Of a stretch of 54,253 nt of DNA, positions 15,260 to 44,844 are shown in pieces. The stretch is taken from the NCBI GenBank assembly GCA_000934665.2, contig KZ538042.1, positions 124,001-178,253 on the forward strand. The letters run 5' to 3'. Position 1 is the stretch's first letter. Each line of letters starts with the position of its first letter. The notes below the pieces were generated by a model. It worked only from the letters and a program-made list of their open reading frames with translations, searched no databases and was not told the origin of the DNA. Made by a program: the position numbers and the translations under genes. Origin of the DNA: Catajapyx aquilonaris (taxonomy: Eukaryota).

Positions 15260-15547
15260 GGCTGCTGACAACCCCGATACTATTCTAATAGGATAACAAC
15301 GACATTGATTGTTGTCAGTCTCATTTCCCGTTGTCGAGGAACCTATAATTTGAACTTTAATCTGCCTGTAAATTAACCAGAGTGGACCCGGAAAATCGGA
15401 AGTTAGCCATGAAACCTATTTTGGTCACGCTGAATCCGAATCCGAAACCCGTTTGTCGCGATATCTTGCGGTTGAGACCCTGAAACCTGTCCACAGACGG
15501 ACAGACGGACAGGTCAATTCTATAGTCGACTTTTTAAATGAGAAAAA
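15185..15547 (-). mobile_element. HINE family A copy 3
   Basis: Reverse-strand match from the 5' subTIR (AATGAGAAAAA, 15537-15547) through GACGGACAGACGGAC and CTGAATCCGAATCCGAAAC to the 3' hairpin near 15200-15222. Confidence 0.85.
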
Positions 15548-22201: not shown

Positions 22202-22223
22202 TTAACCCGTGAATGTTTTACAC

Positions 22224-22560
22224 TTTTCTCATTTAACTTACAAAAAAATGTCTTATAGAACAGCTATGTCCGTCTGTCCGTCCGTCCGTCCGTCCGTCCG
22301 TCCGTGGAAAGGTATCAGGGCCTAAACTAGAAGAGATAGGAAGAAACGGTTTTCGGATTCGGATTCAGTGCGACCAAAATAGGTTTATGGTCAGCTTCCG
22401 GCGGTTTTCCGCCTCTATCCGCCATGAAGTCAAGTTTACAGGCACCTTGGGTTACTTGGCGACGGGAAATGAGACTGACAACATTCCATGTTATTGTTGT
22501 CCACTATGAATTTCTTTGGCAACGAGAAAAAGTCTACGCGAATCACGCGTGGCCAATATC
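22224..22560 (+). mobile_element. HINE family A copy 4, with expanded (GTCC)n
   Basis: TTTTCTCATT...GTCTTATAGAACAGCTATGTCCGTCTGTCC(GTCC)n...GGAAATGAGACTGACAACATTCCATG...GAGAAAAAGTCTACGCGAATCACGCGTG. Confidence 0.85.
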
Positions 22561-23736
22561 AGTTACTTTCAGCCACGGCAATTTTTGGACGTGAAAGCAG
22601 CTAAATATGCAGAGAATCCTTCCTTTATAGAGTCCCTGACCCACCCTGTAGGAGTGAGAAAGGGGAGATTTTGTGTCCCAGGGCACGTAACAGTCTTTGT
22701 CTGTGACGTAATTATCCGAGTGACGGGGAGAGAAAGGGAAGGTAATATTCTTTTCCGCTTCTTCTTCTTCTTGTGTGTGTAGGGTCGGGGGGGACAGGAG
22801 GGAGAGAGAGAATCCCCCCCCCCCTCTCCTCTTTCTCCCCGGATGCAGTCGGAATGGGAATCCGGGGGACTGCAATTGATGTATTGCTTCTTCCCGTGGA
22901 AGTCAACGGATTAGTCTGTTGGGACAAACGGAGCCCCGGAAAAAAAAGGGGAGGCCTAGGGCTTGGAAAACCCTGACTTAAGCCCACCTGTATTGTTCCC
23001 GCCACATTCTTTATGCCGATTCAATTTTTCGGGCTCCGTCTGGCACCCCTGCGGCTCCACCAACCAGGATTAACGGCCAGCCTGGATCAACTACTTACAG
23101 CGACCAGTGTCCACAGAGAGACGAAGGTTTTTTTTTTCTCCCTCACTTTTAAACCGACAGTTACGACCACAAGTTAAACTCCGGTTAACTTGTAACGACA
23201 GTGTTGCCAGCTGTAGAAACTTCCTGGGCCGTATGGCCTTGTGGTGTGGATAATCCGGGACATTGACCCGGAAGACGCCTGAGAATCTGGTGATTCCGGA
23301 GTGCCTCTGCTGTCGTAATAGCGCTTTCTTATTAATTAGTCGTGCACGGCAGAGAAGAGGAGGTGGAGAGTGTGGGGGGTGTTTAAAAGGCGAGAAATAA
23401 ACGGCGTGTGCTGATTAAGGGCCCTGGCGCCAAAAAGAGGGGGGGTTTAGGAGGAGGTAGGCTAAGGGCTGATGATGGTTCCCAAGCCAGATTATGGCCC
23501 CGCTCCTCGCATTTATTCCTACCCGAAATAATTGCCCCGCGTTACTAACGCCAGCTCTCTCTCGCTTTTGCTCAAGGCGCAGTAGGTTTATGCAAACCCC
23601 GAAACGTCTAGGTAGTTTAGGTTAGGTTCTCTCATCTGACCAGTTCCTGTCAAAAAGTTTCTGCACAGGTGGGTGGGACGAAACATGGTTACTCGCTGCA
23701 AGGTCTGGATCGTTTCAAAGAGATACAAAAGAGTAG

Positions 23737-24414: not shown

Positions 24415-25793
24415 GCTCCTCCAATCATATCGCTGGTGTGGATTGGAGGAGGTAGAGGTCGCCCGTGTTCATTTTGAGAAGTTATGCTGCTGGTACCTGA
24501 AATGCTCACAGATGAACTTGGACTCATATACAATGGGGCGCATGTGATGATTTTCCAAATACTCCAGATCATGGTCCGGACCTTGCTACAAGCGACCTTT
24601 TCCCTAATTTAACCATCTATAAACAACCAGGAGGTGCTTTAAAAATGTTTCGATCGGCATGGTGTTTCCAGTGCTGTAATAGTTCTTTTCCCTTGTTATC
24701 CGAGAAGACACGATGCGGTTGGAGGAAGCGGAAGCCTGCGGGTTGGGATAGAGTCGGGGGCCGGGACGGGTAGGGAAATTAGCCCCGTGGATCGAAGCAT
24801 GAAGAAGGGTTGGTGGTCCTGCTTAGGGTTCCTTTTTCGAGCGTGTCTGGGCCACCAGGTGAAGCCGACCGACAAACCTCGAGCATAAATAAAGGCCCGA
24901 CTTACGCCATCTTTGATCTCCCCAATCCAAATGGTTCAGGGTGCCAGCCGCAGCGGCGTGGATGTGGCCAAGGGGTGCCAACCACAGCCAATGTCGGTGT
25001 CGTGCAAGCCTGGAGAGGACACTCTCCTCTCTCTTTTTTTATATTTCTTTATCCGGGGGCCGACCCTGTCCGGACTGCTCCTTGACGACGACAAATCCTC
25101 AATAAATTCCCTGGCAGTGAATAGGATCCCCCCTTCCTCTTACCCCCATCCTTCCCCCCTTTCCCGCATTTCCAAGCCAAATCCGGGATCTGGGAGCTTT
25201 TGGGCAAAGGCGCAACCGCCGTGTAAACAGCCCGAGAGGAAGAGGCGCCCGTTTGCCCGGATTTGGCCCACAATCAGGACGGATTTTTCCGTCCTTCTCT
25301 CCCTCCCCAGGTTTCCGTATAGTAGAGAAGAGAGGGGGGAGGAAGTGGGGGGAGGAATTGAACCTATCTGCCTGGGATTCTGATTTCACGCACGTAAACC
25401 CCCAACTATTATGCGCAGGCGTCTACATTTTTTCTACTCGGAATAGGGAGGGAGCTTGTAAGGGGAGGGAGCGAAGAAGACGAAGAAGAAGGAGGAAAAA
25501 ATCTCTTAGCGTCTGATGTAACGGTGATCCCCGCCTGCTTTAAGGGGATCATCCCTGATGGCGTGTCGCCTCAAATTATTTTTCTAACCGAGGAACAGGA
25601 AAAAAATGTGGCACGGCTTAAACGTGGCAACAGGGCGGATTTGGAGATAAACGCCATCTTTTAACGTGGTAGTCGTGCACCTTTATCATCAGTTGCTAAG
25701 GGCTGGTCGCTAGCGAATATCGCTCGTGATCATAGAGTAGATTTGGTCTTACTTTGATTTCATACAACCGGCCCTTTGAGTCTTTCAAGTCCC

Positions 25794-26290
25794 TTTCTCG
25801 TCAAGAATGAAGTAGACAGTATTAAGCCGTGTTTACATGTGAGCGATTTGATCAGCGATGAATCCAATTGTTTGGGGCAAAATCATGGTAACTATCGATT
25901 TTCGCTCCAAACAATTGGATTCGTCGCTCAACGATGACATCGCTGATCAAATCGCTCACATGTAAACGCGGCTTTATACAACATCTCTGTCCGTCCGTCC
26001 GTGGACATGTATCAGGGCCTAAACAGAAAGAGATAGCGACAAACTGTTTTCTGATTTGGATTCAGCTGGTCCTAATTAGGTTTATGGTCAACTTCCGCTT
26101 TTACGGGTACTACACTCTATCCGCCAAGGTCGATTCTATATGGTTTAGAAATTATTTTCCTTGTGTTAGCATACTTGGCAGCGAGAAATGAGAGTGACAA
26201 CATTCAACGTCGTTGTTGTCCAATATGAATTTCCTCGGCAATGAGAAAAAGTATACTCGAATCACACTCGCGTGATTTGACAATCTTGTT
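25794..26290 (+). mobile_element. HINE family A copy 5, interrupted by a Harbinger MITE
   Basis: After removing 25825-25976 the sequence reads ...AGTATTATACAACATCTCTGTCCGTCCGTCCGTGGACATGTATCAGGGCCTAAAC... and ends AATGAGAAAAAGTATACTCGAATCACACTCGCGTGATT. Confidence 0.85.
25825..25973. mobile_element. PIF/Harbinger-type MITE (family H2), 149 bp, TTA TSD
   Basis: 36-bp TIR AGCCG(T/C)GTTTACATGTGAGCGATTTGATCAGCGATG with 1 mismatch. TTA lies at 25822-25824 and 25974-25976. Confidence 0.92.
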
Positions 26291-27400
26291 TTCCTTACGT
26301 GTAGCGGTCGTTAATGGAAACTTGCGTACTAGGCAAGTTTCTGTGGGTTTCACTCTGCCTTGATATCCACTCATCGAACCCATAGGGGTTTTACCACGAG
26401 TAGGCGGACATGCCAGTAAGAAATGAAAGGGAGATGCAAGTTTCAGAGGATGAGAGAGGCTTATAGAACCGACTTTGAGAGTGAAGTTAAGAGTTGATAA
26501 TCAACGCTTAGAGGAAAGGGAAGGACGGCGTGGACGGCTGGCGAACCACGTGCCTGCTTAGCACGAAGCCTCCAGGGAGGTCTCTGGTAGGAATTACGAG
26601 GCATAATCCCACCTTCTGAGGACCACCAGTGCCTGGGATTAAAGCCCACTGAATTATTGTCGCTGTGCCTGGAAAGGAGGAAGGTTGGCTCCCCTGCCTG
26701 GCGCTCCAAGATGGCCGGCACTCGCCTCCCTTCCACAACAGCCCACCTCGCGACTTTTCGCCTTTTTCTCCGCGACCCTAAGCGTCTTTGGGGCCGGAAT
26801 CCTGAATTTTCGGGTCCGCCGGACTTGGCACACCGACTTAGATCCGGTTGGAAGCTTTCTCCCTTCCCCCCACCCAAACCCTGGGCTGGGAGCTGTCCCA
26901 CCCCCCACGAGAGGCCGATTTGGCTCCGGCAGGCCTAATATCCGGTAATTGGGTCGGGGCAAGCTTCCACTCCGGTTATAAAGCCTAATTGAGCTCTCTG
27001 AGAGAGAGCAGGGGTAGCCAGGGAGCGGGGACCACCGGGCACGTTGTCGTGTACGTCGCAGTGTCATTGAAGCTCTCTTTTTGGCAGAGGGGGTGGACTG
27101 GGGGGACGGATGAAATGGGATCATGACGGATTAAAGGGGACTTTGGCTGGTCGGCAACTGTCAACACGCTCGCAGCTCGGCCTTGATGAGATCGAACCCG
27201 TTTGATCCGTGGAGTCGAATTGCTGAATGGTCGCAACTCGTGTGACCCCGCAAAAGTTCTGCTCTGTGGCCAAAATATGCGCCTGGCACATTTGCACGAT
27301 CCGTCAAACAGAAACAAGAGTGGCAAATCACGAGTATACATTTTCTCATTGCCAAGGAAATTCAAATTGGACAACAACGACATTAAATGTTGTCAGTCTC

Positions 27401-27604
27401 CATTAGGGGGTGGAGTACCACCATTGGATGGGGCCAAGGATAGGGAAGGAAGGAGACGGCTGTGGCCTATTACACGGAAACAACCCCGGAATTATCCTAG
27501 GAAGACCGTGGAAAACCACGGTCAGGGTTGCCGGCCCCGGGATTCGAACCCAGGACCTCCCAATAGCAGTAGGGCTCTTTAACCACCACACCAACTTGCT
27601 TCGG
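27401..27604 (-). mobile_element. tRNA-derived SINE, family S1
   Basis: Minus strand reads CCGAAGCAAGTTGGTGTGGTGGTTA (A-box-like)...GGTTCGAATCC (B-box). It has a 13-bp TSD TGTTGTCAGTCTC at 27388-27400 and 27605-27617. Homologous to 45335-45563. Confidence 0.92.
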
Positions 27605-27765
27605 TGTTGTCAGTCTCATTTGTCGTTGCCCAGTACTACTTGCTGAAAATAGTTTATAAGGTTTGTAGACTCGACCTAATGGCGGACAGAGTGAACCCGG
27701 AAAACCGGAAGTGGCTGGTCACCGGAAGTTGGCCCTGAAACCTATTTAGTCTTCTCTGAATCCGA

Positions 27766-27887
27766 TTATTTAATAATTATTGATTAATAATTTCGGTCAA
27801 TCGAGATGATCGAAGATGATGTGGTGTTGCATACACCAGGTTATCATTGGCTACCTCACATTTGGGACAATGCCGTGAAGAAATGAA
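27766..27887 (+). mobile_element. 5'-truncated retroposon 3' end (RTE-like tail)
   Basis: Ends TGGCTACCTCACATTTGGGACAATGCCGTGAAGA-AATGAATGAA. TSD TGAATCCGA at 27757-27765 and 27888-27896. A second copy lies on the minus strand at 28890-28983. The RTE assignment rests on recalled similarity only. Confidence 0.75.
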
Positions 27888-28889
27888 TGAATCCGAATCA
27901 GAAAACCGTTAGTCGCTGTCTTGCGGTTTAGGCCCTGATACCTGTCCACATACAGACGGACAGAGCCATTCTATAAGACTTTTTAAAATGAGAAAAAGTA
28001 TGAAAGTTGAAAGCTCACAAGCACATGTCATAAATCTATACAACTAAATTTACATTCCAGACTTTGACGGCTCTGATTCGCACTGGTTTTTGCATCTTCC
28101 CAAAGCATCTCTTCCAGAAAAGCAATTTTGACATTTTGACCCCTCCCAGTTTGGGCGAGTGGTGGAGGTCCAAAGCAAGCCAGTTGCGCCAAGCAGCCGA
28201 GCTTATCGGGATCCGACCCGACCCAAATTCTATGCCCGGTTCGATATGTGACCTGGAAAATGGGACCGGGGGGGAAGGGGGTTTGGAAGGGGGAGGCGGA
28301 AGTTGGGACGGGGAGCGGGGGGGTTGAAAAATGTGTCCCTTCAGGAGCTGGCCACAAATGGATGTCCTGCGGGTAGGAGGACACGGCGGGTCCCTTTCAT
28401 GTCACCGGTTTCCTCCAACCCGTTTTGAGGAGGCATCAGGAAATCACGGCACTTTAATGCCACTTGAGCTGCGGCCTCGCACTTTACTCTCGAATAAACA
28501 GCGACTTTAAAAAAGTGTCACTTGCTAAAGTTATGCATAAAACGAGGTTACGCGGCAGGCAGGATCATAAATCATATTTGCACACATCCGGATTGTTAAT
28601 ACTCCATAAATGCAGGTTGCTTCAACGCAAATCATAACACAAGCCCACATAAATTTCACATTTGGTGTGTAGGCCTAATTTGGGAGGTGTTTTTGCTAGG
28701 AACTCGAGTGACAAAACTTTTTGATTTATGTCCAGGATTACCAATCTAACAATGTACTTGTGTAAATGCATCACCTGCTTCTGTGTATAGCACTGTTTTG
28801 GAGGAATATGCCTAGGCTGGTACGAACAGAGTGTGCACCTGAGCTTAATCCTTGTAATGTCGCCTTCCTCAATAAATTTTAAACAAATT

Positions 28890-28983
28890 ATCTATATACA
28901 TACATATCTTCACGGCATTGTCCCAAAGATAGGGTAGCCAGCGATGACATGTGTACAACACCTTGTCATCTATTTTGACCGGA
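28890..28983 (-). mobile_element. 5'-truncated retroposon 3' end, same family as 27766-27887
   Basis: Minus strand GATGACAAGGTGTTG...TGGCTACCCTATCTTTGGGACAATGCCGTGAAGA followed by a TATG/TATA simple-repeat tail. Confidence 0.75.
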
Positions 28984-30099
28984 TATGAAAATCCTAAGGT
29001 GAGGGGGTTTTCTATTTGTATTTTTTACGCTGTTAGAATACTCGAGGGACTTCATAACGAGAGGTTAGCGGTGGCCAAGGTATTTTAATGAATCATCAAA
29101 ATGGCCAGTGTAGCCTGGGTTTGAGCTGCCACTCTGCCATCTGTCGTCAGCGTCATGCGATGATTATAATTCACAGTTGCCAGATGAATCACGGTTTTTC
29201 TGTTTGTTTTGTTTTTTAGATGGGATGACTAGTGGGTGGTGGAAGCCGCGCCTCTCAAGCCCTGCCCAGCAGCTGGCCATTATTTTGCCTTGTTTACTCT
29301 GCAGCGTTAATAGTTCATTTTGCAGCCGCCATAATGATTTCCAGGGGAATGGTCGGCCGGCCTAGCCACACGCACACGCACTGACGCACGCATTAACTCA
29401 TTGACGAACATGTTCATGCATCGCATACCAACACCCCTTTCATGATACACTATTGGAATCTGGGATGTGGCCTAATTGCAAAAAAAAAATGGGTGGGAAA
29501 TGTGCAAAAAACACTTGTTTCTTCTCTTTCAAACCGTGGCACTGTATACGTCTCGATCAGGAGAAAGAATAACAGCACTTTTTTTTGTAGCAGACTCCTG
29601 TTACACGTAAGGGTGTTGTATGACCTGTTGTCGCTGAAACACTTTGGCTTCTGTCTCCGGAGCTGCGCATTCCATTAGGCCGGAAAAGTAACGAGCACGC
29701 GGATCATAAGCAGTCAAAATGCGAAATGAAGGCGCGGTGTACATCGCTGAGAAATGGCAGTTTCTGGCTGGCAAAATGTCGCTGCAAGGCTGTTCTCTCG
29801 TTATGCGCTCCTTTGGCCATAAATCCCTCGCATTTGTGCCACCAAACATTCGTTACACGCAGTCGGATTCGCTCTATGGACCCTGGAATGCCAGCCCGGA
29901 TAACAATTCATTCGGACACCACCTCTCTGCTAGTCTATACCACAGTTTACTCCGGATGTAACAGACCTTTCAAGGTACTGGTCTGTTACAGCCAAATCGT
30001 CACTTTTGCAACGAATGCTTTCCATAGCTTATAATGCACATTACTGCATTTGTTAGTTAATCTGACCACAAAAATGCGAAAATAGCCCCCCCCCCCCCC

Positions 30100-30578
30100 C
30101 ACTTGGACGTAGTACCATACTGCCGTCAGATATGAGAAGGCCGTAACTCAATATCCACTTCCCTTGCGGCGAGAAAAGAAAGCAAGTGTTACCGAAAGCA
30201 CCCAAGAGGTGGCGTTGGGGGAAGGGGGAAAAAGGAACGGCACCCCAACTCCACCTCTTGGATGCTTTTGGTACCACTTATTTTTTTCTCGCCGCAAGGG
30301 GAAGTGGACATTGAGTTACGGTCTTCTCATATCTGACGGCAGTTGTCGCATAGTCTGACTCTCTCACACTACTGCCGCTCTCAGGGGGAAAGTAGCACTA
30401 CATGCACGTTGGTGATGAGTCACTGCGCGGACAAAGTCCACCAGGGCGCTCTAGTCGACTTTATTATACACTATTGTTGAACGGGGAAAGTGAAAGCTAT
30501 GGCCTATAGGCGATTAGTCAACACGGACAAAGAAGCAGACAGACAGACTAAGGGGATTAGTAGTATGAAAGGTAGAAT
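30100..30578 (-). mobile_element. Family B copy, interrupted by a MITE
   Basis: Reverse complement of 4478-4775. ACTTGGACGTAGTAC on the left and AGTTG...CACTACTGCCG...AGGGGGAAAGTAG on the right flank the insert. Confidence 0.8.
30119..30343. mobile_element. Palindromic MITE with ~100-bp TIRs
   Basis: ACTGCCGTCAGATATGAGAAGGCCGTAACTCAATATCCACTTCCCTTGCGGCGAGAAAA is inverted at 30284-30343. Symmetry continues through CCAAGAGGTGG/CCACCTCTTGG. TA on the left only, so the superfamily is uncertain. Confidence 0.9.
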
Positions 30579-31824
30579 ACATTTTTGGGTTACTGTAATG
30601 TTGCTAACAATGTAGTACTTTTCCCTCCCCAAATGTGGAATAGGACCAGAGAGGTGTAATGGCAGCTCTTAGAGAAGGGCGTGTGTGCGTATCCAATTCG
30701 GGAGCCGGTTCCATTTCCGAGCTATCCAATATCCCTGGTCCCCCACCGTCAGAGTCCAGCACAGGGGGCCCGAGCTGCAGCCTCTTTTCAGGCTTACATC
30801 ACTTTCGCAAACGAATTTTATGTTCCGTTGGAAATGTTACCCGTCTGAACAGGGCCACTTCCCCTCCATCCCCCCAATGGGTGGGACAATGCGGCTTGTG
30901 TGACTAATGGACACCTGGCCGATATAGACCCCCGGACTGTCCAATAATACAAAAGGCCCGGGAATTGTTTCAAGGAAGTTAACCTTTACGCGACCCGTTG
31001 TTTTGCATTTAATTGAATAGACGCGCTTTACAATGGTTAAAACCTCATTTGCCTAGTTTTGACTCCCTCTGGGGGTTGGAGGGAGAGCTTTGACACGCGT
31101 ACAAAAAAAAATATTGTACCGGAGGTGTCCTTGACGAGGTAAATGCAAAAAGTTAATTACTTGGTTATTATTAAATGCGGGCACTGCGATGAAAAGGTTG
31201 TCCAATAGGGGCATAATGCTCTAATTAACCCTTATTAGCCGTTTTTAGCCCCGGAACAAAAAAAAATCCGGTCGTGCGTTTTCCGAAGTAATGCGGCGCG
31301 TAATGTCCCCGGCGGGTGTTACTTTTGTGTCTTAATAACATCCGGCGTAGTTAATGACGATTGGATTTCCCCCCGCGTCGAGTGCGCAGTACGGATGTCA
31401 TAATTTGTGTCCACCCATACTCTGTCTCTCCTTTTTTCCCCCAACCCAGCTAAATGGGCGGGTCTGCACACTCGTGTCAACAAGGATGGAAAGTCATTAA
31501 CAATTTTTTTTTCTGTTTTGTCGCACTAACTTGTTGGTACAGTAACTAATACTCGTTTTTTTGTGGGTAGGAGTTACATTCACCACATGCATCCGACACG
31601 TGCTTTTTGCCGCGTTGCGTTCTGGAAAATTGTAACTGATGTTTGAGGCTAATAATGTTGCTTGTCTGGATATTCTGTCTGGAACATAACCTAGCAGTTG
31701 CAGAGTATGCGCAGAAGCAATGTGCAGTAGGGATGCGCAGAAGCAATGTGCAGTAGATGTGCGCAGAAGCAATGTGCAATATCAATGCGCAGAAGCAATG
31801 TGCAGTAGGGATGCGGAGTGTATA

Positions 31825-32032
31825 CAGGGTGGTCCAACATCAAGTGTCGTTTTATAACGGCGATTAATAGCAGGGATTTTGCGATGACGTAGCAGCGACG
31901 CGTAAAATGTCCCACTTCGGCGCATCTTCGGCGCCATCTAAGTGGGCAATTTTACACGTCGCTGCTACGTCAATCATAAAGCGCTTCTATTAATAGCATT
32001 TATAAAACGACACTTGATGTTGGACCACCTTG
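31825..32032. mobile_element. Tc1/mariner-type MITE (CAGGGTG ends, TA TSD)
   Basis: TA|CAGGGTGGTCCAACATCAAGTGTCGTTTTATAA ... TTATAAAACGACACTTGATGTTGGACCACCTTG|TA. Palindromic over nearly its whole length. Confidence 0.92.
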
Positions 32033-32267
32033 TAGAGAGCCTCGAGGAAGAGAGTCGCCAACTTCTTACGTCGTCATCTCTGCTTAGTTGGAGTAGTCAC
32101 TCCAGCCAATCGGAGTCGACCGTGACGTCAGAACAGGCCACTGTTTCCATAGAAACGCAAGATGGCTGCCTCCATAGGATACGTAAACAGTCCATAATAT
32201 ATTACTGTAGCCAATCAGAGACGACATGATGTAAGAAGTTGGCGACTCTCTTCCTCGGGGCTCTCTT
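32033..32267. mobile_element. hAT-like MITE (TAGAG ends, degenerate 8-bp TSD)
   Basis: TIR TAGAGAGCCTCGAGGAAGAGAGTCGCCAACTTCTTAC pairs with GTAAGAAGTTGGCGACTCTCTTCCTCGGGGCTCTCT. Putative TSD GGAGTGTA (31815-31822) versus GGAGCGTG (32268-32275). Confidence 0.82.
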
Positions 32268-33753
32268 GGAGCGTGCATCAAAAATGCGCGGAAGCAATGT
32301 GCAGTAGGGATGCGCAGAAGCAATGTGCAGTAGGGATGCGCAGAAGCAATGTGCAGTAGGGATGCGCAGAAGCAATGTGCAGTAGGGATGCGCAGAAACA
32401 ATGCGCAATACGTAAATATCACCGTGATGCCTCATAAACTCTTGTATTATGCAAGTTGCTCAGGGTTTGAGGCGATAAGACAAATGCTGAGCGCAATCCC
32501 GTGTTGGGCAATCTGAAAAGATGTGTGTCGCTCTCATTAGTGACGTGCACCATTTTGGACGCGTCTGGTCCAGGCGCCGATGCCAAATGTCTCATTCCAT
32601 CTCCCGGAATTGAAGTTGGCGGGAGGGTTAAATCTGCGGTTAAATTAGATGCAGATTAGACTGTCGGCCCGCTATTGGCTGGCTGGATGGAACCGGGCGA
32701 GGGTATAGGGGGTATGCAAAAGGTCGGACGCGGCACACACACACATTCATCCAAGAGACGACAGGCTCGGCGAGGAATTTGAGNAAATTGGAAATGAAGG
32801 ACATAGCGGAGGCATCCGGAATTCATTGCAGTGGTAATTAATTCTATCCAGGTTTTAGAGTTGGGGAGGGGAAGGGGGGGGGGGGGGAGTCAGTTGCAAT
32901 TAGTGAACCAAACCGGCAGTATTTGGCGTAATTGCATTTAAAACTTGGGGCTTTTGGGATGTGGGGGAGGTGCTACGTGCAGGCCTCAAAAGTGCATAAG
33001 TGGGGGGTAGGGTAGAGGGGCTAATAAAAGGGTTTGCCATGCGCGATGACTCGATTTTGGATATTAATTCGATGGATATTCGTCCAAACTAAGCGGAAAC
33101 CGGGTATGGGGGGAGGGGGGTGCGCCGAATTTATTTGTTTTTAATCTGGATCACAACTCTTGTAAACAAGGACTGCAGGATGGCGTAATGCTCGTTTTAT
33201 GCAACCTGTTAACTGACCGTTAAGCCCTAACTGCAGTTTAAGGACCGGCTGCATTAAAGCAAATTAGAAGAAATCCCTCGCGGTCCATCTAGTAGGCTAT
33301 CATACCTCTCACACATAGATGGCGAATAACTCTTTATCTGGACAAACTGAGACACAGAAGCCAATTCAATTAGACATAATTCGGCATAACCGTACATCCA
33401 TATTATTAATACCCGACAGTCGTGGAAACTCCTCCCGCACTGTACGGCCTACAGCATTAGGAGTTGTGTCAAAATTTTGCCCGCGTTTTCTATATTTGCA
33501 AACCACTTTTGTTTTTTGGAAATAGTTCCCTTGGAATTTATCAAACGCAAAAAAGCGCAAAAAAACGCGACTTCCCCAGTTCCACGGAATTCCCATTTGC
33601 GCCTCGTAGGGAGCCACCTGCTTGGTCACGGCTCGCTTACTTCTGCACGTTACCGTCGGATGTCGCTTCGATTCTGCTGCCTATACCACACTAACCACTA
33701 ATATTATTTGTTGTAGTTGTCGTCGTCGTTAACCTTTTCTCTTGTTGTTTCAG

Positions 33754-33797
33754 GCGCGACCAGATAGCCTGCAGCCTTCGACAACTCTCCGGAATAG
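33754..33797 (+). other. Candidate 44-nt internal exon of an unidentified large gene
   Basis: Preceded by branch-point-like CTAAC/CTAAT (~33691-33702) and a polypyrimidine tract CTTTTCTCTTGTTGTTTCAG. Followed by the strong donor AG|GTAAGA. Lies in unique sequence, has no ATG, and two reading frames are open. Confidence 0.5.
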
Positions 33798-35249
33798 GTA
33801 AGAGTACACATCTCCGTCATGAACTAAATATATTTTTAGAACAGTAATTAACCCGTGTGTTCATCATCGTTAATTAAGCCACGTCCAGTGTGTATAGTAC
33901 GTCAGAACACCTGTCGCACAATAATTCCAGACGTTGTTATCATCATCGTTGTAATGATCATTACTGCGGGGCCATTCTTCCGGGTCTGATTAGCTCCTGT
34001 TTATTAATCATCCGTTGCGCTGCTTCGATTATAATTGGCATTGTAATCCGAATCAGAAAAAAAATCATCAACAGACTTATCTTTTTCGAAAAAAAAATAA
34101 TAATAACAACTTTGTTGTTTTTCTTTTACCCCCGAATTTTCCGCCGGCTTTTGTGCTGCCTGGGATGTGACTAATTACAGCGATTGCACAGTGTCCTCGA
34201 ACGGTGCAGGTACACAAGGCCCAGGTTCTCTGTACCGGAATGTCTAATTATTAATGAGAACTTTGGCTTGCGAAACACCGGGGGAACTTTCTAAATCAAT
34301 ACACACCGGCCCGGGCTGAAAATAAACCGTAGTCTGAGCAGATTGCGAAGTAAGGTTTCATTAAAAAATGAAGGCAGCAAGCAGGAAGAGATTCTATATA
34401 GGGAAAAGGGGCTTGCTCCTTGTTATGGAAGCTCTCAGGTCGTCCCATACCTGTTATGTAAAACGACAAGAAAAGAAAAAATGAAGGAAGATCCTGGGTG
34501 GGTGGGGAGAATATGCCAAACTTTTTTTAACGACCCGAAAGAGCATGCTCCCCAGAACTTTTCTTGCCAAAGTTTTCACTCGCTTGTTCTCTCTTTTCGC
34601 CATTTTTTTTTTGGGGGGGGGAGGACTTAAGTTAGTGGAGACATCATTGGAATCGGAAGTGATGCAGTATGAATCGGATATTCTTTTTTTTTAAAGAGGA
34701 AAAGGTCCGGGTTATTTGGTGGTGGCATGGTGCGTGAAGTTCATTTTTAACATTTGAGGTTAGATGCGCGGTTATGAATTGCTCATCCCAGCAAATCTTT
34801 TAAAACTTCGCAACATTGCCTTTTCGTATAGTCACTTAGTTAGTAGGGACTCGTTGCCAAATTTTGGCAACACTGCCTGCCCCCTCCCAAACTTGAACGG
34901 ATTGTGATATGAATGAAATTTGACACCCAAACTACATTATTGTGTATGCCCAACATCCAGACCACATTAGACGCAAATTTTCATGTCCGAGGGGGATTCC
35001 CGTCACCTTTTCACACCCTGCGCAAGCCCCCCCTACTTTTCGAAAATTCAGTGTGGCGTTAATACTCAGTCGCGCGTAATTAGCCGTACACTCTTGCGAA
35101 GACCTTGACACCCACGAGTCGACTGATGTATGGAAAAGTCTAAATTCATCCAGCCTCCGCATGACGAAAATGAGGATCGAAGTGGAGGGGAAACGGGATG
35201 TTTAGGATTTATTTTCTCGCTAACAAAGCACGACTCGCACTTGAAAGTA

Positions 35250-35409
35250 GAGTTGGGTTGCATCATGCCAGGATGAAATGCATTGAAGGTAGTTGATGGC
35301 ACACTAACCTAACCTAACCGAACCTAACCTAAAGATGGCAGATTTTGAGCAAGTACAATATCTGCCATCCTTTATCCTTATTTCATCCTGGCATGATGCA
35401 ACCCAACCC
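35250..35409. mobile_element. MITE containing an internal (TAACC)n tract
   Basis: Perfect 28-bp TIR GTTGGGTTGCATCATGCCAGGATGAAAT pairs with ATTTCATCCTGGCATGATGCAACCCAAC. CTAACCTAACCTAACCGAACCTAACCTAA lies at 35304-35332. Confidence 0.88.
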
Positions 35410-36828
35410 AGATTTTGAGCAAATATATCCCAAAGTTTTTGAACAAAAAAAAATCAGTTCCCATTTCTTTTATATGCAATATTATTGGGATCACTTTTTT
35501 CCGATTTTTGTAGCCACACCCTGTAGCGCTATTTGGACAGCTTTGGGCCAACTTTTTGAGTCCCCCTGCCGTAGCTGGCTGTCTCTTGAATGGCCCCCTG
35601 TCGCGCTTGATATTGATTGGCCGAAGCCAGCCGGATTATGCTGGGATAATGTTATATCCAGTGGTTATGCTGTTTGTGCCTTGCTTTGATCCCCACCCTG
35701 TACCCCTCCGACGCCAGTCAGTAATGAGGCAGCGTTCATGTAGTGTACTGCTTGCCCTATGTACTTTTGCTTATTTATTAACCCTCGACGCTGGAAAATG
35801 CGTAGCGTTATGGCCGGCCCTGGTCCTGTAGCCCCAAAACTTGAGCTTGCAAATATGCGAATGAGGAGGGGCGTGTTGTTATGAAAATAAGGTGATAAAA
35901 GTTCATGACGCTTGGGATTTCTCCAGGGTGGGGCGGGGGACAGGTGTATTTTTTTTGTTACATTTTTTTTTTTTTTTTAAACGGCCTGTGGATGGTCCCT
36001 TCCCTCCCCCCCAAAAATGTGTTCCGCATTGCCAGCTGCTGGGGGGTAAAAATGCTGGAAGCGTGATGAAAACATGACTCAACTGACTCGCACTGACCTG
36101 CTCTGAATTCATGCCACATTCGGCCCACCCAAAATGAATACTACCCCCAAAAAAAATCCTCCTCCTCCTCCCCCCCAGTAGCATGAGCAGAAGGAACCAA
36201 GCCATGGCCGCACCAGTTAATTTCACGCCATTTCCTACACAGTATAGGTTACGCCTTGTCGAGCATGTGAAGGAGTCACCTGCTGCTATTTTGTCTCTTC
36301 TTTTGTTGTTTTCCGACCTCCTTTTCTTTCTTCCTCTGTGCCTGTGGGTGTGCAATTATTTTCTGCAAAATCTTAGGGTTTTTCGGGGGAGAGAGGGGGT
36401 GAAGGGAAGGGAGGCAGGGAATGGAGGGGGAAGAAGGATCAATGCTTGGTTGGTTGGCGTCACAGGCTCACAGGGTTATATCTCGACTGTGGGGGGAATA
36501 AAGCGAGGATTCCGCTAGATTACCTTTTCGGGATGTTCGCATGCACTTTTGATGGCGGCGTCCTACTTACAACCGTCACGGAAACAATCCCAATCCTCCT
36601 CCTCCTCTAGCTCTCTTTTCTTTTTTTATTTCCAACCGACGTGTGAATTCGCCAACACGACTCATTCCGACGGGCTTTCAAGCCGAACCTCCCATTTTGC
36701 TTTATATTCGCCTATTCTGCTCTTTAAAAAGGCTTGTATTTCCAACCCTCGCTATTCGGTAGTGCCAATGACAAAAATTGATCAGGGTGATTGATAAATA
36801 GTAAAATAAATATGCGCCGCAATTTCCT

Positions 36829-37013
36829 CGGATGAGAAACCAAATTTTATTTAACAAAATGGTTATTTAGACTCAAATAACTGCAATTTTCGGACTTCTC
36901 TCTATAAATCAGCGGCCCTTACGACGTCAAGTTTCAATCCTCTCAGTACTCCGGAAGTGGGTTGGGTAGCGGTACCCAACCCACTTCCGGAGTAGTTTAT
37001 ATATAATGTAGGA
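36829..37013 (-). mobile_element. Helitron family D, 5' part
   Basis: Minus-strand 5' end A|TCCTACATTATATATAAA. GACTCAAATAACTGCAATTTTCGGACT...TAAATCAGCGGC...ACGTCAAGTTTC matches 50985-51057. Confidence 0.7.
36947..36994. repeat. Perfect 22-bp-arm hairpin with 4-nt loop
   Basis: TACTCCGGAAGTGGGTTGGGTA-GCGG-TACCCAACCCACTTCCGGAGTA. Confidence 0.98.
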
Positions 37014-37679
37014 TTTTTGCGACCAATCTATTTGCGAAAATGTGACTTACGTTGGTTTACGGAGGGAAATGGGCTGAGTTGGTAATATCATATCCGGAGG
37101 AAAGAGAGAAGAGACTAATAATAAACAGCGGGCTGGGTTTTGCGGGGGTTTTCATCTGCGGAGGAGGTGAAATTAATGTCGGAGTCGATCTTATTAGCGC
37201 TATCGGTTTCGCATAAACATTTTGGGCCAGGGCCTGTTTGCGAAGAGATAAGCCTCCCCATCCACCCACCCCCACTGCGACAATATTGTTCTGCGGAACG
37301 GGGGTATAGGCAGCAGGGAATCTGTCCAATTAGAGAGGACCTCTCCTCTCTTTTTTTCGCAGAAAATCGCAGCTTGTGAAAAATAGAGAGGGGTCGGGAC
37401 AGGGGCTCGCAAATTGAAAGTGCGCGAATTTTTGCAGGTGAGGAGAGCCAGCTATAGTCAGAAACCTGCTGAAAATAGGTTACCAGCTAAAAACGCTTAT
37501 TTGAAGTTTACCTGTGGACGTAATACGATATGGCTCACATATATGGCGCACTTCTTATGACTCACCGCGGACAAACCCAAGCCAATTCTGTTAGTTTTTT
37601 CCCCCATCAACTTCTGATATGCAGGACCGTGAGAGTATGTGCTAATGTGCCAATTTTTTTTTTGAAAAGCAGAAACAAT

Positions 37680-37778
37680 GGGTGGAATTTTCGTCCCACT
37701 GCTAGTTACTCCTAACTTAGCAGTAACCATCCCCGACACCGGTTAGCAGTAACTAGCACTGGGACGAAAATTCCGCCT
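37680..37778. mobile_element. MITE, same family as 23737-23853
   Basis: GGGTGGAATTTTCGTCCCA...TGCTAGTTACT pairs with AGTAACTAGCA...TGGGACGAAAATTCCGCC. It shares the internal CTAACTTAGCAGTA. TSD not preserved. Confidence 0.85.
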
Positions 37779-38553
37779 ACTATTTTAATCGTTACTGTGT
37801 GGTGCGAATGCAGCAACGTTTGTTTTAGAAGCGAGAAAAAGCCAGGTGCAAATTGCAGATTCGCAATTTTCGTAAGGAAATAAATATTTAGAGTTTGTAT
37901 ATATAGTTAATGCGCAACATGGTCCGGCTTCTGTTGGCAGTTTCAAATTGTGTATATTCTCTATGCAAAACTGATCTACGCGCGAGGGCTTTCCAACAAT
38001 GGGCGGCGAGGGTACAGTGCACTTAAATCTGTTTTGCTTAATGAACACAGTTTTGTGTATGTTTTGCATGCATTGCTGGAGTCCTGCACCTCCCGGACAC
38101 TGTATATACAGTAACGTATATGGAATAAGCTAGCAAGTACTCAGTTTATGGCGAGTTTGCATTATACTTGCGGGCACGTTTAGGTCGTCGACATAACATA
38201 TATGGCAATGCACCGTGGCCACTTCCAAGTGGAAGGAAGTGCATTCCCTCAGCAACAATATAGGAAAAAAGGAAGCAACAATCGCACCCTATAGAGTGCG
38301 CAAGCGTGAACTGTAGGGATTGCAACACAAAACGATTTCAATTAGAGATGAATTGTCTCGTGGACGTCGTGGAGGGTATGATCTCGAGTCAAGGTCAGCT
38401 AATCAGGGTGTTAATAAAGTGGGCGCTTGTTGTCTCATTACGCTGTCAACTCGTGTAATTGAACGAGCCCTTAAGAACCCCGGGTCTTTCAAGACACTCC
38501 ACAACACATCAGGCATTATCGCATAAACTACGACTAACTTTGGACCAAATGTT

Positions 38554-38973
38554 TCGAAAACAACTGAAAGGGCCACTCCACTCAACAAAACACAATTTTG
38601 GTTCTAAAAATCGGGCAAAAAATCCCGAATCCGACGGTGCAATTCGTTTTTCGCTAGGCGGAACGGTAATCCCAGGGCGAGGCGTCAAAGTGTGTCGTCT
38701 GCTAATGAGCGGCGCCGCCACTCGGGGAACAGGGGAACTGGAGGGCTGCACCTCTCTGGGATGGGCCTAAGCGCGCGGGCAGGCGGGAGCAGCCCTCCAG
38801 TTCCCAAGGTCCCGAGGGCGTCGCTGGCGGACGGCCACACTTTGACCCCTCGCCCTGGGATTACCGTTCCCCGTAGCGAAAAACTGATTGCACCTTCGGA
38901 TTCAGAATTTTTTGCCCAATTTTTACAGCCAAACTTGTTTTTTGAGTGGAGTGTCGCATTAAGTTGTTTTCGA
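38554..38973. mobile_element. ~420-bp palindromic MITE with ~190-bp arms
   Basis: TCGAAAACAACT..CACTCCACTCAA, GAATCCGA.GGTGCAAT, TTTTTCGCTA, GGAACGGTAATCCCAGGGCGAGG and GGGAACTGGAGGGCTGC are all mirrored in order on the right side. Superfamily unresolved. Confidence 0.9.
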
Positions 38974-41211
38974 TACCCTGATTCAAATGATTTGATGATG
39001 TTTAAAGAGTCTCTATACCTGCCCCCGTTTGATGACGTAGAAAGGACAGTGTGCCAGATGAAGCAGCATCCAGTTCACCTGGTAACCCCTGCATCAAACA
39101 CGCGCATTGTGATGATCCACCAGTTTTTCCTTACCCTTTTGTTTGACCGCAAATGGTGTGATGAAGCACTACAGCTAGAGGCCCTCGTCAAAGGGTAGTT
39201 TAAGCCTTATTCCGACCTCTTTTTCGGGCAAAAAGTTGGCAGGTCTTCCCTTTTTTAAGTAATTCCGTGTTTTTTTCATATGTAGGTGCGGTTTTTATAT
39301 GCGATTTTTTCGCGGATTATGTGCAAGGAGAGGAGATGTGGCGTAGCTTTGAGCTTGCGAATGGTGGTTTTTGGAGTGCTCCCCACGAAAAGTGTTTTTC
39401 AGAAACTGGAGGTCTGCTGGAAAACACTTGGGCAGCAGTGTGTTGCTGGTTTGGTGCACCTCTGAAGGATCACGCTCCCTCTAGTCATCATCGGGAGGGG
39501 ACCAAAGGAAAGGAGGGTTTTTTTTATGATTATTTTCAAAGGCGCCAAGAGGCTGTTTGGAAGCCGCAAACTCGGGGGTTAATAAAATTTCAACCCATTC
39601 TTTCGGATGGATGAAAAAAGGAGGCAGCCGCCCGAAGCTAACCCCTGGAATAACACGTAAAAAAATAGAAAGAGTAGGGGGGAATGAAACGCTGTATCTC
39701 TGCATTATAAGCACTTGATACAGTTACCTCAATAAAGGAAGCGATCCCCCCATTTCCCTTTACAAAAAAAATAGAGTGGAGGGTGTGACATGGGATTGCT
39801 TTAGGAAGCATTAGTTTGAAGCCTTGCCTACCTTTTTTGTGTGTTCATCTGGTGCAAAAATCCATCAGAGGAAAAATAGAAGGCTGCATTTTAGTGTGCG
39901 CTGTTGGGGAAAAATTCCTTTTTTTCACTCTTTTTTTATTGCATTTTTTTTTCGGAGGGGGAGATGTTTAGTAATGTTTGGGTGAGAGAGAGGGGTGGTA
40001 TCGGAGCTGGTTTAGCTCAGAGCACACGGGGGCCGCCCTCGTATGTAATGCTGGCACAATAATACCTGAATAGTGCATTAGGGAAGCGCAACCCATTATT
40101 TTACGCCCCTTTTGCCCCATTCAGGTCCCAGGTCCTGGCACAATTCGCTCCCAAAAAATATATGCGCGGGAGGGGGTTGACACCCACGCCCCCAGTCCTC
40201 TAACTGCTTTTTAAAAACTAAATGACACGGGAGGGAAAGATATTTTTTTTTAAATAATAACAGCCGACTGTAATCAAGCCTGATGGGCAACTTCGAACGC
40301 GCCCGTTTACTCCACCTGGCAACATTGACTGGAATAGTCGACAGAAAATCCTGCCTTTCTGGTCCCTTGTGAATCTTCGGGATGAAATGTGGCAGAGCAT
40401 TTTTAAATGTTACTAATGGTGCAAATTACTCAAAACCACGCTTAAAATTTGGCTGTTACTTTGTATTTAGTTTTATTCGTAAAATACCATTATTACCCTT
40501 ATTACATATTTTTGCACGAACGTTCTCGGAAGTTTGATTTTTTAAGGCGCCGAATATTCGAGAGTGAATAATTAAGTATGTTCGCAACAAGTATTATTAG
40601 TGCAGTATGCTCGAGTAGCTAGTAAGAGCGGCTATTTTTCTATTGCTATCAGCCGCTAGTCGGATGGATTTTATCTTCCTAACCTAGCATTAGACATTAA
40701 GCTAGTACAGCAGCGGGTTTTGTAGTCCTTTGTTGTAAGCAGGTGCTACTAATTACGGCGGAAGGACAGAAAACCCAGCCCAACTTGACAAGGGGCCCAG
40801 TGGTCCGAGTGGTTGGGGGGGTTTTTTATGGGCACCGTTTGAATCTACTTGTTGCTTTGGATAGATAATTGGCAGTGTCGTACACGTTCTTTACACATGC
40901 AATCCGCCAGCTTATGCCCCTGTCATTCCCAAAAATGGCATCACCCCCACTGAACGTCACCGGCACGTGACTCCCGCGATTTTCGGATGCGTCCCCCGTT
41001 TTTGGGGTCGGTTCGATAAAAGCCTTCCCATCCTCCCAACCACCCCCACCCCACCCTAAAGTTCAGTCGACTGAAGCTCGTCGGCGAAACTGGGTGTTTG
41101 ACTAATTAAGCATACGTTTTACGACTAATTAAATATCCCAGGAACATTCGCCGTGAAAGTCAAACGCTGTAAATTATTTCGAGACCGTTAGGAAGGGGGG
41201 GGGGGGGGGTG

Positions 41212-41372
41212 NNNNNNNNNNNNNNNNNNNNNNNNNNNNNNNNNNNNNNNNNNNNNNNNNNNNNNNNNNNNNNNNNNNNNNNNNNNNNNNNNNNNNNNNN
41301 NNNNNNNNNNNNNNNNNNNNNNNNNNNNNNNNNNNNNNNNNNNNNNNNNNNNNNNNNNNNNNNNNNNNNNNN
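41212..41372. other. Assembly gap (N run) between poly-G and poly-C tracts
   Basis: Ns in the sequence. Smaller N runs at homopolymers occur at 6300-6310 and elsewhere. Confidence 1.
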
Positions 41373-42078
41373 CCCCCCCCCCCCCCCCCTTCCGAAATTT
41401 TAGGATCCACCCTGAAAAGCCATTTCGTGTCCCTCAAAAAAAATGGCGATTACACAAAAAGCGGTTATGAACCGAGAAGGATTATCAGCTTCCATCTATC
41501 TGTGGCCTGGCCAAAATATTCCTCCGCCGAAAATTTAGATGCCGCAACTACCCACGTCTCCTCTGGTGTACCCTCCCCTCCCACTGCTCTTTAGCATGAT
41601 AATGACGTCATCTGCATTCAGGCCGGCAGAGCGCGTATTGGAATAGTCGGAGGCCCCCCCTTTCCGGATATCAGATCGGGTTAAAACAACACGCTCCAAA
41701 TGTGCCTGTCGAGTTTCCGGGAGGTAACCCGGATTAATTGCCACCCACCAAACCCACCCACTTACAACACGCACACACGCCATACGTGGTTTTAACCCCT
41801 TATTGCTCAGCCCGTCTTCTCCGATACTTTTTTTCTCTATTCTCTTCTTTCGCCTCGTGTTTCGCAAATTTAATCCGGATGGTCCTACCTCCCCCCTTGG
41901 GAGACAAAAGCCTCGTTTCATTTGCATTCCATTGGCCAAACACTTTGCCTCATTGATGCCTTTTAACCATTGTGCCGACTAGGGCTAACTGGCTGGAAAT
42001 TACCGGAGGAAGAGAATTGCTGAAAGACAATGCGCACGCCCAGCCATGTACCGTATACACCCGGATAGTTAACGGCAG

Positions 42079-42215
42079 GACTTGCCCAACTTTTCTCTAA
42101 GACTTAGAGAAAAAGTCTAATAATTTGGGCAAGTCAATGCTCGTCAATGCTCGTCAATCGAGCAAAAGTTGACTCCAGATATAACAGACTTCAAGTGACC
42201 GTGGTCTGTTATATC
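42079..42215. repeat. Cluster of small hairpins and a 10-bp tandem repeat (probable MITE remnant)
   Basis: GACTTGCCCAA...TTGGGCAAGTC encloses TTTTCTCTAAG-A-CTTAGAGAAAA. GTCAATGCTC occurs twice. GATATAACAGAC...GTCTGTTATATC forms a further hairpin. AATCGAGCAAAAGTTGAC also occurs inverted at ~7700-7719. Confidence 0.7.
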
Positions 42216-42961
42216 CACTCCATTAGTACCGCACGAGTATAGCACGGAACAATAATTTGTTTTGCAGTTATTTCTAGATCGCACTGACGCGAAAGTGTGA
42301 GAAACGAGCATTTTTCAGCCCCTTATCGCGTTTGAACAAATCGCTGCTTATGAATAGCTTGCCCAAACATTGCAGAACTGTAGCGTCCCATGCTTAGTTT
42401 ACTCCACAAAATTCCGGCCGACTTTTCGACTTGTAGCTTCCATGGAATTGCGATACATGAACCGAACGTAAATTCCAAAACAGCGCGTACCTTTTTTTTT
42501 TGCGTTATTTACTTTTTTTTGCAGATGAAGAAGACCTGTCTGGCTGATTGGCCTGAGCGTCTCCGATAAGGCTTTGTGTTTGTCAGCAAGACGAGCGAAA
42601 AATATTGGGTGCTAGGCTGAAAATGCATCATCGTCACCCCCTTTTTTCCTTTCCCTCTATCGTCGACGTCTTGGGCCAAATCCGGGCAGCTCACCTGCTG
42701 CTTTTAGGGCCGACATGCGTCAACCCCCGAGACGTGTCCTATCAAACGGGACGTCCACAACCGCCTCTCTTTAATCTCACCTGTTTCCTCCTATCGCCCG
42801 AGCAGGTATAGCCTTTTAATCACAGCTACCCAGTCTGGATACAGTCATGCTCAACTCTAAAAGAGCCAAACAAGAAGAGGATACAGCATGCGACACTTCC
42901 ATCGCTATACTCGGTGAAGTCTCGATGTTTAAATTTAAAAATGTGCGGCTTATTTTAGACA

Positions 42962-43540
42962 TTTTCTCTGCAAAAAAAGAGTATTAAGGCCTGTTTACAC
43001 CCTCACGATTTGAGCCTCGGTCGCACGACTAGACAGCGTCTGGTCGTGCGACCGAGGCTCAAATCGCGAGGGCGTCGTGAACAGGCCTTTACAGAACGGC
43101 CCTGTCCGTATGTCGTCCGTGGACAGGGATCAGGTCTTAAACCGCAGGAGATAGCGACAAACGGTTTTCGGATTCGGATTCAGCGTGACAAAAATAGGTT
43201 CCAAGATCAACTTCCGGTTTTCCGGGTTCACTTTATCCGCCATGGTCGAGTCTACATGCTTTAGAAATTATTTAGGTTATGGCGACGGGAAATGAGACTG
43301 ACAACATTCCAAGTCATTGTTGTCCAATTTGAATTTCATTGGCAATGAGAAAAGGTCTACTCGAATCACGCTCCGGGTTTCAAGGTCAAGTCCACATGCT
43401 TTGGATATCATTCAGATTGCTTCTTGTCGACGAGAAATGAGACTGACACCATTCCATGTCAATGTTGTCCAATTAGAATTACCTTGGCAATGATAAAAAG
43501 AATACTCGAATCACGTTCGTGTGATTTGCCAGTGTTGTTT
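42962..43540 (+). mobile_element. HINE family A copy 7, with Harbinger MITE insertion and duplicated 3' half
   Basis: Family A body follows 43091. The block GGTC.AGTC.ACATGCTTT...GAAATGAGACTGACA...AATGA.AAAA...TACTCGAATCACG occurs twice (~43243-43371 and ~43383-43516). Confidence 0.88.
42987..43088. mobile_element. PIF/Harbinger-type MITE (family H1), minimal 102-bp form, TTA TSD
   Basis: AGGCCTGTTTACACCCTCACGATTTGAGCCTCGGTCGCACGAC is mirrored at the right end. TTA lies at 42984-42986 and 43089-43091. Confidence 0.92.
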
Positions 43541-44844
43541 TAAATGTAAAGACCGATTCAGGTGTTTCCGGAGTGATGGAAGTGTCGTACGATGTATCCG
43601 CTTCATGCTATAGCATCCGTGTGAATCCTTATGAAACACCCAGTATATAGTCTGTGTTATTATTTTGGCAGCCTCTGGAAGACATTTTCCCAGCTCTTTT
43701 CGGTTGGTGCGACCCCGTCATGGGGTTGTGTATACAAAAGCATAGCTCGAACCCGGAATGAATTTTTTAAAGGTTGTATGGGCTCCTCCTTCGCTGCGAG
43801 TTTTTCATTTGAAAGGAGCCTCGATATTAATTTTCCATGGCTGCGGAAATAAATGTAGCATGCAGAAAACTAGTTCCGGGGGGGCCTGCCAGCTATGTGT
43901 GTGTACAGTCCCGTTTAATAACCGTTTTGGAAATAAAAGGGGGGGAAAAGGAGAGAGAGCTAAAAAAAAATAATCATAAAAAAAGTAGGCCAGCTGAAAA
44001 TGAGAGTTGTAGTCGGCTTATTTTGGAACGGAAAAAAAATAGTTGAAATGTCCCCTTTTTGGTTAGCGATTTTTAACACTAAATGCTGATTAGGCATGTC
44101 GACGTGGCTGCCTTTTAATATTTCAAATATTAGCTGCTGATATTCGTACATGTAAACCCATCATTTTTTTATTTTTAAAAATGCGATCTTGCGAGCCTAC
44201 AAAATTGACATAAAATATAGAGCGCATATTGTAGCATAATAAAATGCTAAAAGTTATTAAAAATATTAAACGAAAAGTGTCGAAAGGTTGCGTTGCAGTG
44301 TTTTTGCACAATTTTAGCTAGCGTTTGTTTGCAGATTCCAGGTTTTCTCTCATCTATCCTATCATCAGAGATGAAAGCTGAAATTCTGTAATTTTTTTTT
44401 TTTCGTTTTTAACTGGCACACGCCGCATTACAAGAGGGCAGTACTTTTTGATTCAATTTCATTCGCCAAAATGAGACCACAGTACACATATGGGACCTGT
44501 CATTATTCCAGTAAATGTTTACAAAAAATTAATGCCATAACCGAAGTTACGAGAGTTGCAAATACAGTATATAGTACGAAGGTTATATTCATATCGCAAC
44601 AAGCAGCGCCTTATTCTTCGTAGATTTTGCAAATTAATGAGTATGCCGCCATGGGGAGTACAGAGTGTCGCTCATTATTAGAGAATAATGCAAAAATGAA
44701 ACTAAGTTTCCAGTGCTTAATGAGTTTTGTGGCCAATTAAAACTATTATCAGTCTGCAAGATTCCAGTATTCCGACATTGGTGTCTCTTTTTATCCTGTA
44801 ATTTAACAAACTCTAATTAGTATGATCTCTGTACGCTGTAATAA

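Follow-up and report, generated by a model that had tools for sequence, protein, structure and literature searches.

Probable separate insertion of two Tourist-like MITEs at the homologous TTA of two HINE repeats in Catajapyx aquilonaris

Repeated independent insertions at one site of the maize R gene led to the discovery of the transposon PIF, and the nesting of one miniature inverted-repeat transposable element (MITE) in another was reportedly used in plants to read insertion preference, in work that is said to be that of Jiang and Wessler in Plant Cell in 2001. The present study concerns two MITEs, H1 and H2, that occupy the same TTA trinucleotide in two copies of a rolling-circle repeat, HINE family A, in Catajapyx aquilonaris. 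The DNA analyzed, hereafter called the window, comprises 54,253 nucleotides of contig KZ538042.1 (positions 124,001 to 178,253 of the forward strand, assembly GCA_000934665.2) and is eukaryote-like and rich in repeats. As with the nested plant MITEs, H1 and H2 are embedded in other repeats, and the host repeat provides a ready empty-site reference. Unlike in the plant case, the nesting here is that of a MITE in a HINE.

H1 and H2 resemble PIF/mPIF of maize and Ping/Pong/mPing of rice in being short non-coding elements that are bounded by terminal inverted repeats (TIRs) and flanked by a 3-bp TTA/TAA target-site duplication (TSD), and the likeness would extend to a target choice that reaches beyond the TSD (passages of PMC2836001 and PMC4122938). 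In contrast to the plant elements, they reside in an animal-type genome, their TIR sequences are different, no autonomous partner was seen in the window, their target motif comes from two sites only, and their target host is a Helentron-derived repeat. A 3-bp TSD is given as a mark of the PIF/Harbinger superfamily in part of PMC4122938. The extended target preference that the original prediction had assumed for this superfamily agrees with sections of PMC2836001, according to which all characterized PIF/Harbinger elements show an insertion preference beyond the TSD, one that spans 9 bp in plant elements and 15 bp in those of vertebrates. The maize PIF target motif, searched for as a string in the literature, gave no match, and PMC2213677 contained nothing on target preference. 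Spy transposons, which are kin of PIF/Harbinger, IS5, and ISL2EU and have a related DDE transposase, also insert in a strongly sequence-specific manner (PMC4122938, in part). However, they insert within AAATTT and make no TSD, unlike H1 and H2 with their clear TTA duplications.

For the host repeat, the closest described relatives are Cg_HINE of Crassostrea gigas and DINE-1 of Drosophila. The defining features of HINEs, including subterminal inverted repeats (subTIRs) and a GTCY-type microsatellite in the left flank, are described in parts of PMC4067079 and PMC7492417. Family A is like Cg_HINE and DINE-1, as portrayed in these parts, in its 5' subTIR with a complementary inverted repeat (IR), its GTCY-type left-flank microsatellite, its central repeats, and its 3' subTIR followed by a palindrome, a likeness that concerns these features. 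In contrast to the family A case, with its Harbinger MITEs at a fixed HINE position, the same parts of the two papers describe HINEs that entered other transposable elements. Our literature search returned no title on Helitron or Helentron derivatives that carry Harbinger MITEs at a fixed position, and no claim of novelty is made.

Seven copies of family A were found in the window by self-comparison and a profile search with nhmmer, and two of them are interrupted by a MITE at a TTA. Copy 7 (42940..43544, plus strand), which has two core monomers and nhmmer matches at 42940-43373 and 43381-43544, contains H1 at 42987..43088, between TTA TSDs at 42984..42986 and 43089..43091. Copy 5 (25772..26301, plus strand, identified with nhmmer) contains H2 at 25825..25973, between TTA TSDs at 25822..25824 and 25974..25976 (no strand is assigned to the MITEs or their TSDs). 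The occupied sites read AGTA-TTA-H1-TTA-CAGAAC in copy 7 and AGTA-TTA-H2-TTA-TACAAC in copy 5. The TSDs on both sides were read from the sequence, and the right ones align to the consensus TTA of the HINE: in a leave-out nhmmer profile made from copies 1, 2, 3, 4, and 6 only, with copies 5 and 7 excluded, the right-hand TTAs of both MITEs fall in the same 'gtcTTAtagaa' columns. The arrangement is therefore as originally described, with two MITEs at the same TTA of two HINE copies. We infer that H1 and H2 were probably inserted separately at this homologous TTA through the known extended target choice of PIF/Harbinger elements.

The sequence on the left of the two MITEs is preserved to different degrees. 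In copy 7, the 45 nt upstream of H1 are similar to the 5' end of a HINE (empirical p = 0.003 among 14,250 background windows), and the intact 5' subTIR upstream of H1 pairs with the 3' subTIR over 13 nt with 92% identity (42956-42968 / 43347-43359). In copy 5, the 5' arm (25772-25824) is degenerate, and the one mark of HINE origin that it retains is the TTTCTC core, which stands at the expected distance but is also present at 26 of 3317 non-HINE TWA (TTA or TAA) sites. Given the intact arm of copy 7 and the degenerate arm of copy 5 with its TTTCTC core, H1 clearly lies inside a HINE, and H2 is read as occupying the homologous TTA in a HINE with a decayed 5' arm.

Copies 5 and 7 resemble each other only in the HINE body, over the segments 25996-26269 / 43114-43373 (79.6%) and 26182-26292 / 43431-43541, their outer flanks are unrelated, and the interiors of H1 and H2 could not be aligned (52/300 shuffles score as high as observed). 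Since the HINE bodies are 76% alike while the MITE interiors are unalignable, a single inherited insertion is unlikely, and the comparison supports two separate insertion events at homologous sites. The original prediction of independent insertions thus holds for the events, as judged by flanks and interiors, but not for the enzyme, because 19/27 terminal bases of H1 and H2 are identical. These matches form two blocks, AGSCSTGTTTACA and CGATTTGA, with 6 unrelated bases between them. The MITEs had been said to share only a terminus, which overlooks the second, subterminal block CGATTTGA common to both. These common terminal and subterminal motifs make one transposase lineage likely, and H1 and H2 were most likely mobilized by the same or a closely related transposase of the PIF/Harbinger type.

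Both MITEs are near-complete palindromes. H1 is 102 bp long, with termini AGGCCTGTTTACA and arms of 38 nt (92%), and H2 is 149 bp long, with termini AGCCGTGTTTACA and arms of 42 nt (95%) that take in the flanking GTA-TTA / TTA-TAC. The predicted DNA folds have energies of -67.4 kcal/mol for H2 (z = -16.4) and -51.2 kcal/mol for H1 (z = -12.7). Flanked by TTA on both sides and bounded by TIRs, H1 and H2 can be classed as Tourist-like MITEs of the PIF/Harbinger type, as had been proposed, and we take their termini to resemble those of plant Tourist elements. A long form of the H1 family, in the interior of which a 77-bp unit is repeated in tandem (2.9 copies), is located at 784..1244 (strand likewise not assigned), outside any HINE, and the 102-bp H1 looks like a minimal deletion form of this element. 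H2 is represented in the window by the one full copy and an H2-like fragment of 37 nt at 49201-49237. A possible fourth H-type end at 25233 was dropped, as it has no partner arm.

The order of features in family A, from 5' to 3', is subTIR ACTTTTTCTCATT, a complementary AAAAAGT, the site GTC-TTA-TAGAA, a (GTCC/GTCT)n microsatellite, a conserved body of ~250 nt, the inverse subTIR AATGAGAAAAAGT, and a palindrome, AATCACGC..GCGTGATT. Pairs of subTIRs were found in 4/5 copies examined, namely over 11 nt in copy 1 (91%), 16 nt in copy 3 (94%), 10 nt in copy 4 (90%), and the 13 nt of copy 7 given above; among the five, no pair was found in copy 5. The IR complementary to the 5' subTIR reads ACTTTTT-CTCATTTT-AAAAAGT in copy 6 and is alike in copy 3 (both read by eye and unscored). 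The microsatellite is present in 7/7 copies and is longest in copy 4. The 3' palindrome is present in copies 1, 3, 5, and 7; copies 4 and 6 have part of it, and copy 2, which is truncated, lacks it. HINEs are expected to insert at TT and to make no TSD; the ends of family A are T-rich, and its termini are not fixed to the base. The presence of subTIRs, IR, microsatellite, and 3' palindrome bears out the original assignment, and on these features family A is a HINE, that is, a non-autonomous repeat of the Helentron type that is copied by the rolling-circle mode. In a Pfam scan of 13 of the 14 listed open reading frames (ORFs) of at least 150 amino acids in the window, no Pfam family was detected, and no autonomous Helentron with Rep, helicase, or endonuclease was found among these 13.

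Contigs from four sequencing runs (X1-X4) of one sample, which is probably the source of the assembly, were the only genome-wide data. Such contigs collapse repeats and leave the flanks of repeated MITE copies unreadable. The contig test covers copy 7 with H1. Both H1 junctions of this copy are spanned by independent read contigs of the four-run sample. One contig covers ~1.4 kb of unique flank, crosses the HINE 5' arm unbroken, and reaches 43 nt into H1, and a second one joins the right arm of H1 to the HINE with 15 gapped letters compared with the window. The depth over 42920-42979 equals that of the single-copy flank (18, 31.9, and 30 in X1-X3; no cover in X4). As this contig is unbroken and the depth is that of a single copy, there is no second near-identical HINE/H1 composite of copy 7 in the sample. 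This result tells against the earlier suggestion that the MITEs are spread as HINE cargo; what it rules out is limited to recent, near-identical copy-7 composites and does not extend to older ones or any with H2.

H1-like sequence is multi-copy in the same contigs, with a summed depth of ~1350-3860 over H1 and ~34,000 over the HINE body compared with 18 for the single-copy flank in X1, values that are depths and not copy numbers. The multi-copy state together with the family member outside a HINE marks H1 as a mobile family and not a part of the HINE. In each run, loose ends before 43114/43115 were seen in approximately 80 HINE-like contigs. The consensus derived from them, ...AAAAATTCTTATTCAGTCTGTC, corresponds to the unoccupied site with an agreement of only 0.52-0.56, and most HINE copies appear to be unoccupied.

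Two further observations were made in the contigs. In each of the four runs, the 114-nt contig of the right junction matches 129 nt of the window (43045-43173) with 0 substitutions and 15 gapped letters. A 15-nt indel at some point in the H1/HINE junction region thus distinguishes the assembly from the read contigs. Upstream of copy 7, positions 42860-42919 show 2-3x the single-copy depth, which points to a low-copy repeat.

We estimated the role of chance with a model of uniform use of the 1766 TTA/TAA sites of the window, in which five homologous HINE sites are still TTA. The probability that at least 2 of 3 H-type MITEs are found at the homologous HINE TTA is then 2.4e-5. Given that both MITEs lie in a HINE to begin with, this chance becomes ~1/12. 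The pattern was chosen post hoc from a very large scan, which weakens these figures, and we consider sequence preference far likelier than chance. The base preceding the TTA is A in both occupied copies and C, C, and T in the unoccupied copies, which hints, with n = 2, that the variant with A before TTA is the better target. The earlier observation that both occupied hosts carry GTA-TTA instead of GTC-TTA is correct as to this base. Beyond it, the occupied sites share AGTA-TTA-nAnAAC (n = 2), but both are located in homologous DNA, so that homology by itself would account for the shared flanks, the A at position -1 excepted. The occupied target had also been called symmetric, which applies to GTA-TTA-TAC in copy 5 but not to GTA-TTA-CAG in copy 7.

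The explanation that we favor can be outlined as follows. H1 and H2, as two non-autonomous cut-and-paste elements, would each have entered one HINE copy at the TTA just 3' of the 5' subTIR/IR hairpin and 5' of the (GTCC)n microsatellite. The same or a closely related transposase, together with its DNA-binding partner, would recognize the ends AGSCSTGTTTACA and CGATTTGA and select its targets by an extended motif around TWA. The HINE variant AGTA-TTA-YAsAAC probably fits this motif, and a repeat with many copies would offer a good site repeatedly. One enzyme with one extended motif, and a repeat that presents the motif many times, would lead to repeated hits at the homologous base. The coincidence of the sites is what the known biology of the superfamily predicts, and we regard it as ordinary nested insertion, a new instance of a known event. 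A transposon-targeting-transposon system, as envisaged in the original prediction, is not needed, because the documented target preference of 9-15 bp suffices.

Other explanations have to be weighed against separate insertion by target choice. Mere coincidence would mean that nested insertions are common and that both MITEs struck the same one of ~12 TWA sites in a repeat of ~380 bp, a pattern noticed afterwards. The conditional chance of only ~1/12, the other elements that landed elsewhere in the HINE of copy 6, and the post hoc selection are in line with this explanation. We nevertheless consider it unlikely, in view of the unconditioned probability given above and of the AGTA and nAnAAC that border both occupied sites on the left and right, respectively. 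A hot spot directed by structure, where the local DNA structure or open chromatin beside the 5' subTIR/IR hairpin and not a motif attracts insertions, would agree with the position of the site immediately 3' of the inverted pair ACTTTTT..AAAAAGT, and the deletion in copy 1 and the rearranged sequence in copy 3 could reflect local fragility. However, copy 5 is occupied although its hairpin arm is degenerate, no other type of element is present at the site in the 7 copies, and the sequence preference of PIF/Harbinger elements is already sufficient, so that such a hot spot appears quite unlikely.

The remaining alternatives involve the copying of the composite itself. Copy 7 has retained its outer subTIRs and 3' palindrome despite the insert, and its mobilization is conceivable in principle. 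A spread of MITE-bearing HINEs as units, copied by the Helentron machinery, is still very improbable, as the unbroken copy-7 contig and its single-copy depth in X1-X3 oppose it, and the two composites carry different MITEs in HINE copies that are only 76% alike. The broader proposal that one Harbinger lineage habitually lands in the HINE 5' arm throughout the genome as a safe haven, with some composites mobile and the MITE also spread by rolling-circle copying, is in our view decidedly improbable. A single insertion into an ancestral HINE, inherited by both copies and followed by replacement or divergence of the MITE interior, could account for the same site, the related ends, and the fact that no other two HINEs in the alignment are as similar as copies 5 and 7 (pairwise identity 0.76). 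Yet this value barely exceeds the identities of copy 7 to copies 1 and 2 (0.74 and 0.75), the HINE bodies align at 76-80% and the MITE interiors not at all, and the arms of each MITE are 92-95% alike, suggesting that the MITEs are younger than the divergence of the HINEs. An ancestral insertion is therefore extremely unlikely.

Several observations weigh against separate insertion by target choice, the explanation preferred here. The 13 scanned ORFs of the window are without a Pfam match and revealed no autonomous PIF/Harbinger element or transposase, so that the assignment to the superfamily depends on the TSD and the form of the TIRs. Such an autonomous partner would encode a DDE transposase and a Myb/MADF-like ORF1 between matching TIRs. 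In the background test of 45-nt windows described above, the sequence upstream of H2 in copy 5 gave p = 0.25, and this 5' arm, which also escaped the leave-out profile, is not demonstrably HINE. The target preference is derived from n = 2 events, too few for a target logo. Of the 9 AGTATTA heptamers on both strands of the window, 7 are empty, a circular count, since the two occupied sites themselves supplied the motif. Moreover, the third member of the H1 family, at 784-1244, is flanked by triplets that are not identical and lacks the AGTA context.

If the preference applied genome-wide, the HINE family would supply thousands of near-identical test sites in a natural array, from which the target specificity of an animal PIF/Harbinger transposase could be read. 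Presence or absence of an insert at the TTA site of the HINE could also make a useful marker. At present, the finding is the expected result of two abundant repeat classes sharing one genome, and it opens no new question.

The five HINE copies without H1 or H2 differ at the corresponding site. Copy 4 (22205..22572, plus strand), with a long (GTCC)n microsatellite, and copy 6 (27301..28019, minus strand), with two other nested inserts, have an unoccupied GTC-TTA-TAGAA, located at 22250-22259 (TTA 22253-22255) and 27978-27969 (TTA 27976-27974), respectively. In copy 2 (7690..7930, plus strand), which is 3'-truncated, the site reads GAT-TTTA-TAGAA, with the TTA kept at 7729-7731 and unoccupied. 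In copy 1 (5801..6126, plus strand), ~12-14 nt including the TTA are missing, and in copy 3 (15182..15567, minus strand) the site is GTCGACTATAG, without TTA. The altered sites of copies 1, 2, and 3 had been thought to be excision footprints. We rejected this, because none of the three has a doubled TTA or other TTA..TTA remnant, PIF/Harbinger elements generally excise precisely (stated in parts of PMC4561436 and PMC2836001), and conservation among HINE copies is in any case poor in this stretch. The 3' end of copy 3 (subTIR and palindrome) and ~170 nt downstream of it form a tandem duplicate with a period of ~220 nt (window 14950-15330, minus strand).

Among the matches listed, no related sequence was found in prokaryote, viral, and metagenome collections, and a longer HINE pattern and an H1-terminus pattern gave 0 matches in genome and viral contig collections. 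An 18-nt HINE word matched at least 120 loci in metagenomes; among the matches listed, none was HINE-like beyond a seed of 23-24 nt, and they were dismissed as chance matches; the 18-nt pattern was too short.

Other insertions were observed in the window. Copy 6 (minus strand) carries a nested insert of ~120 nt within 27600-27890, flanked by a direct 8-bp repeat, CGGATTCA, which suggests a hAT-like MITE at a different HINE position. A second nested insert in the same copy, of ~200 nt (window ~27400-27610, minus strand), has a tRNA-like head with a GGTTCGAATCCCGGG box and is probably a tRNA-derived short interspersed element; ARAGORN identified 0 tRNA genes in this insert. Finally, a TTA-flanked element of 175 bp with perfect 14-nt (about 22-nt) TIRs, AAAAAGTTTTGTGGCGCAGC, is located outside any HINE at 53508-53688. 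Its ends are unrelated to those of H1 and H2, and its TSD reading is ambiguous from A/T runs.

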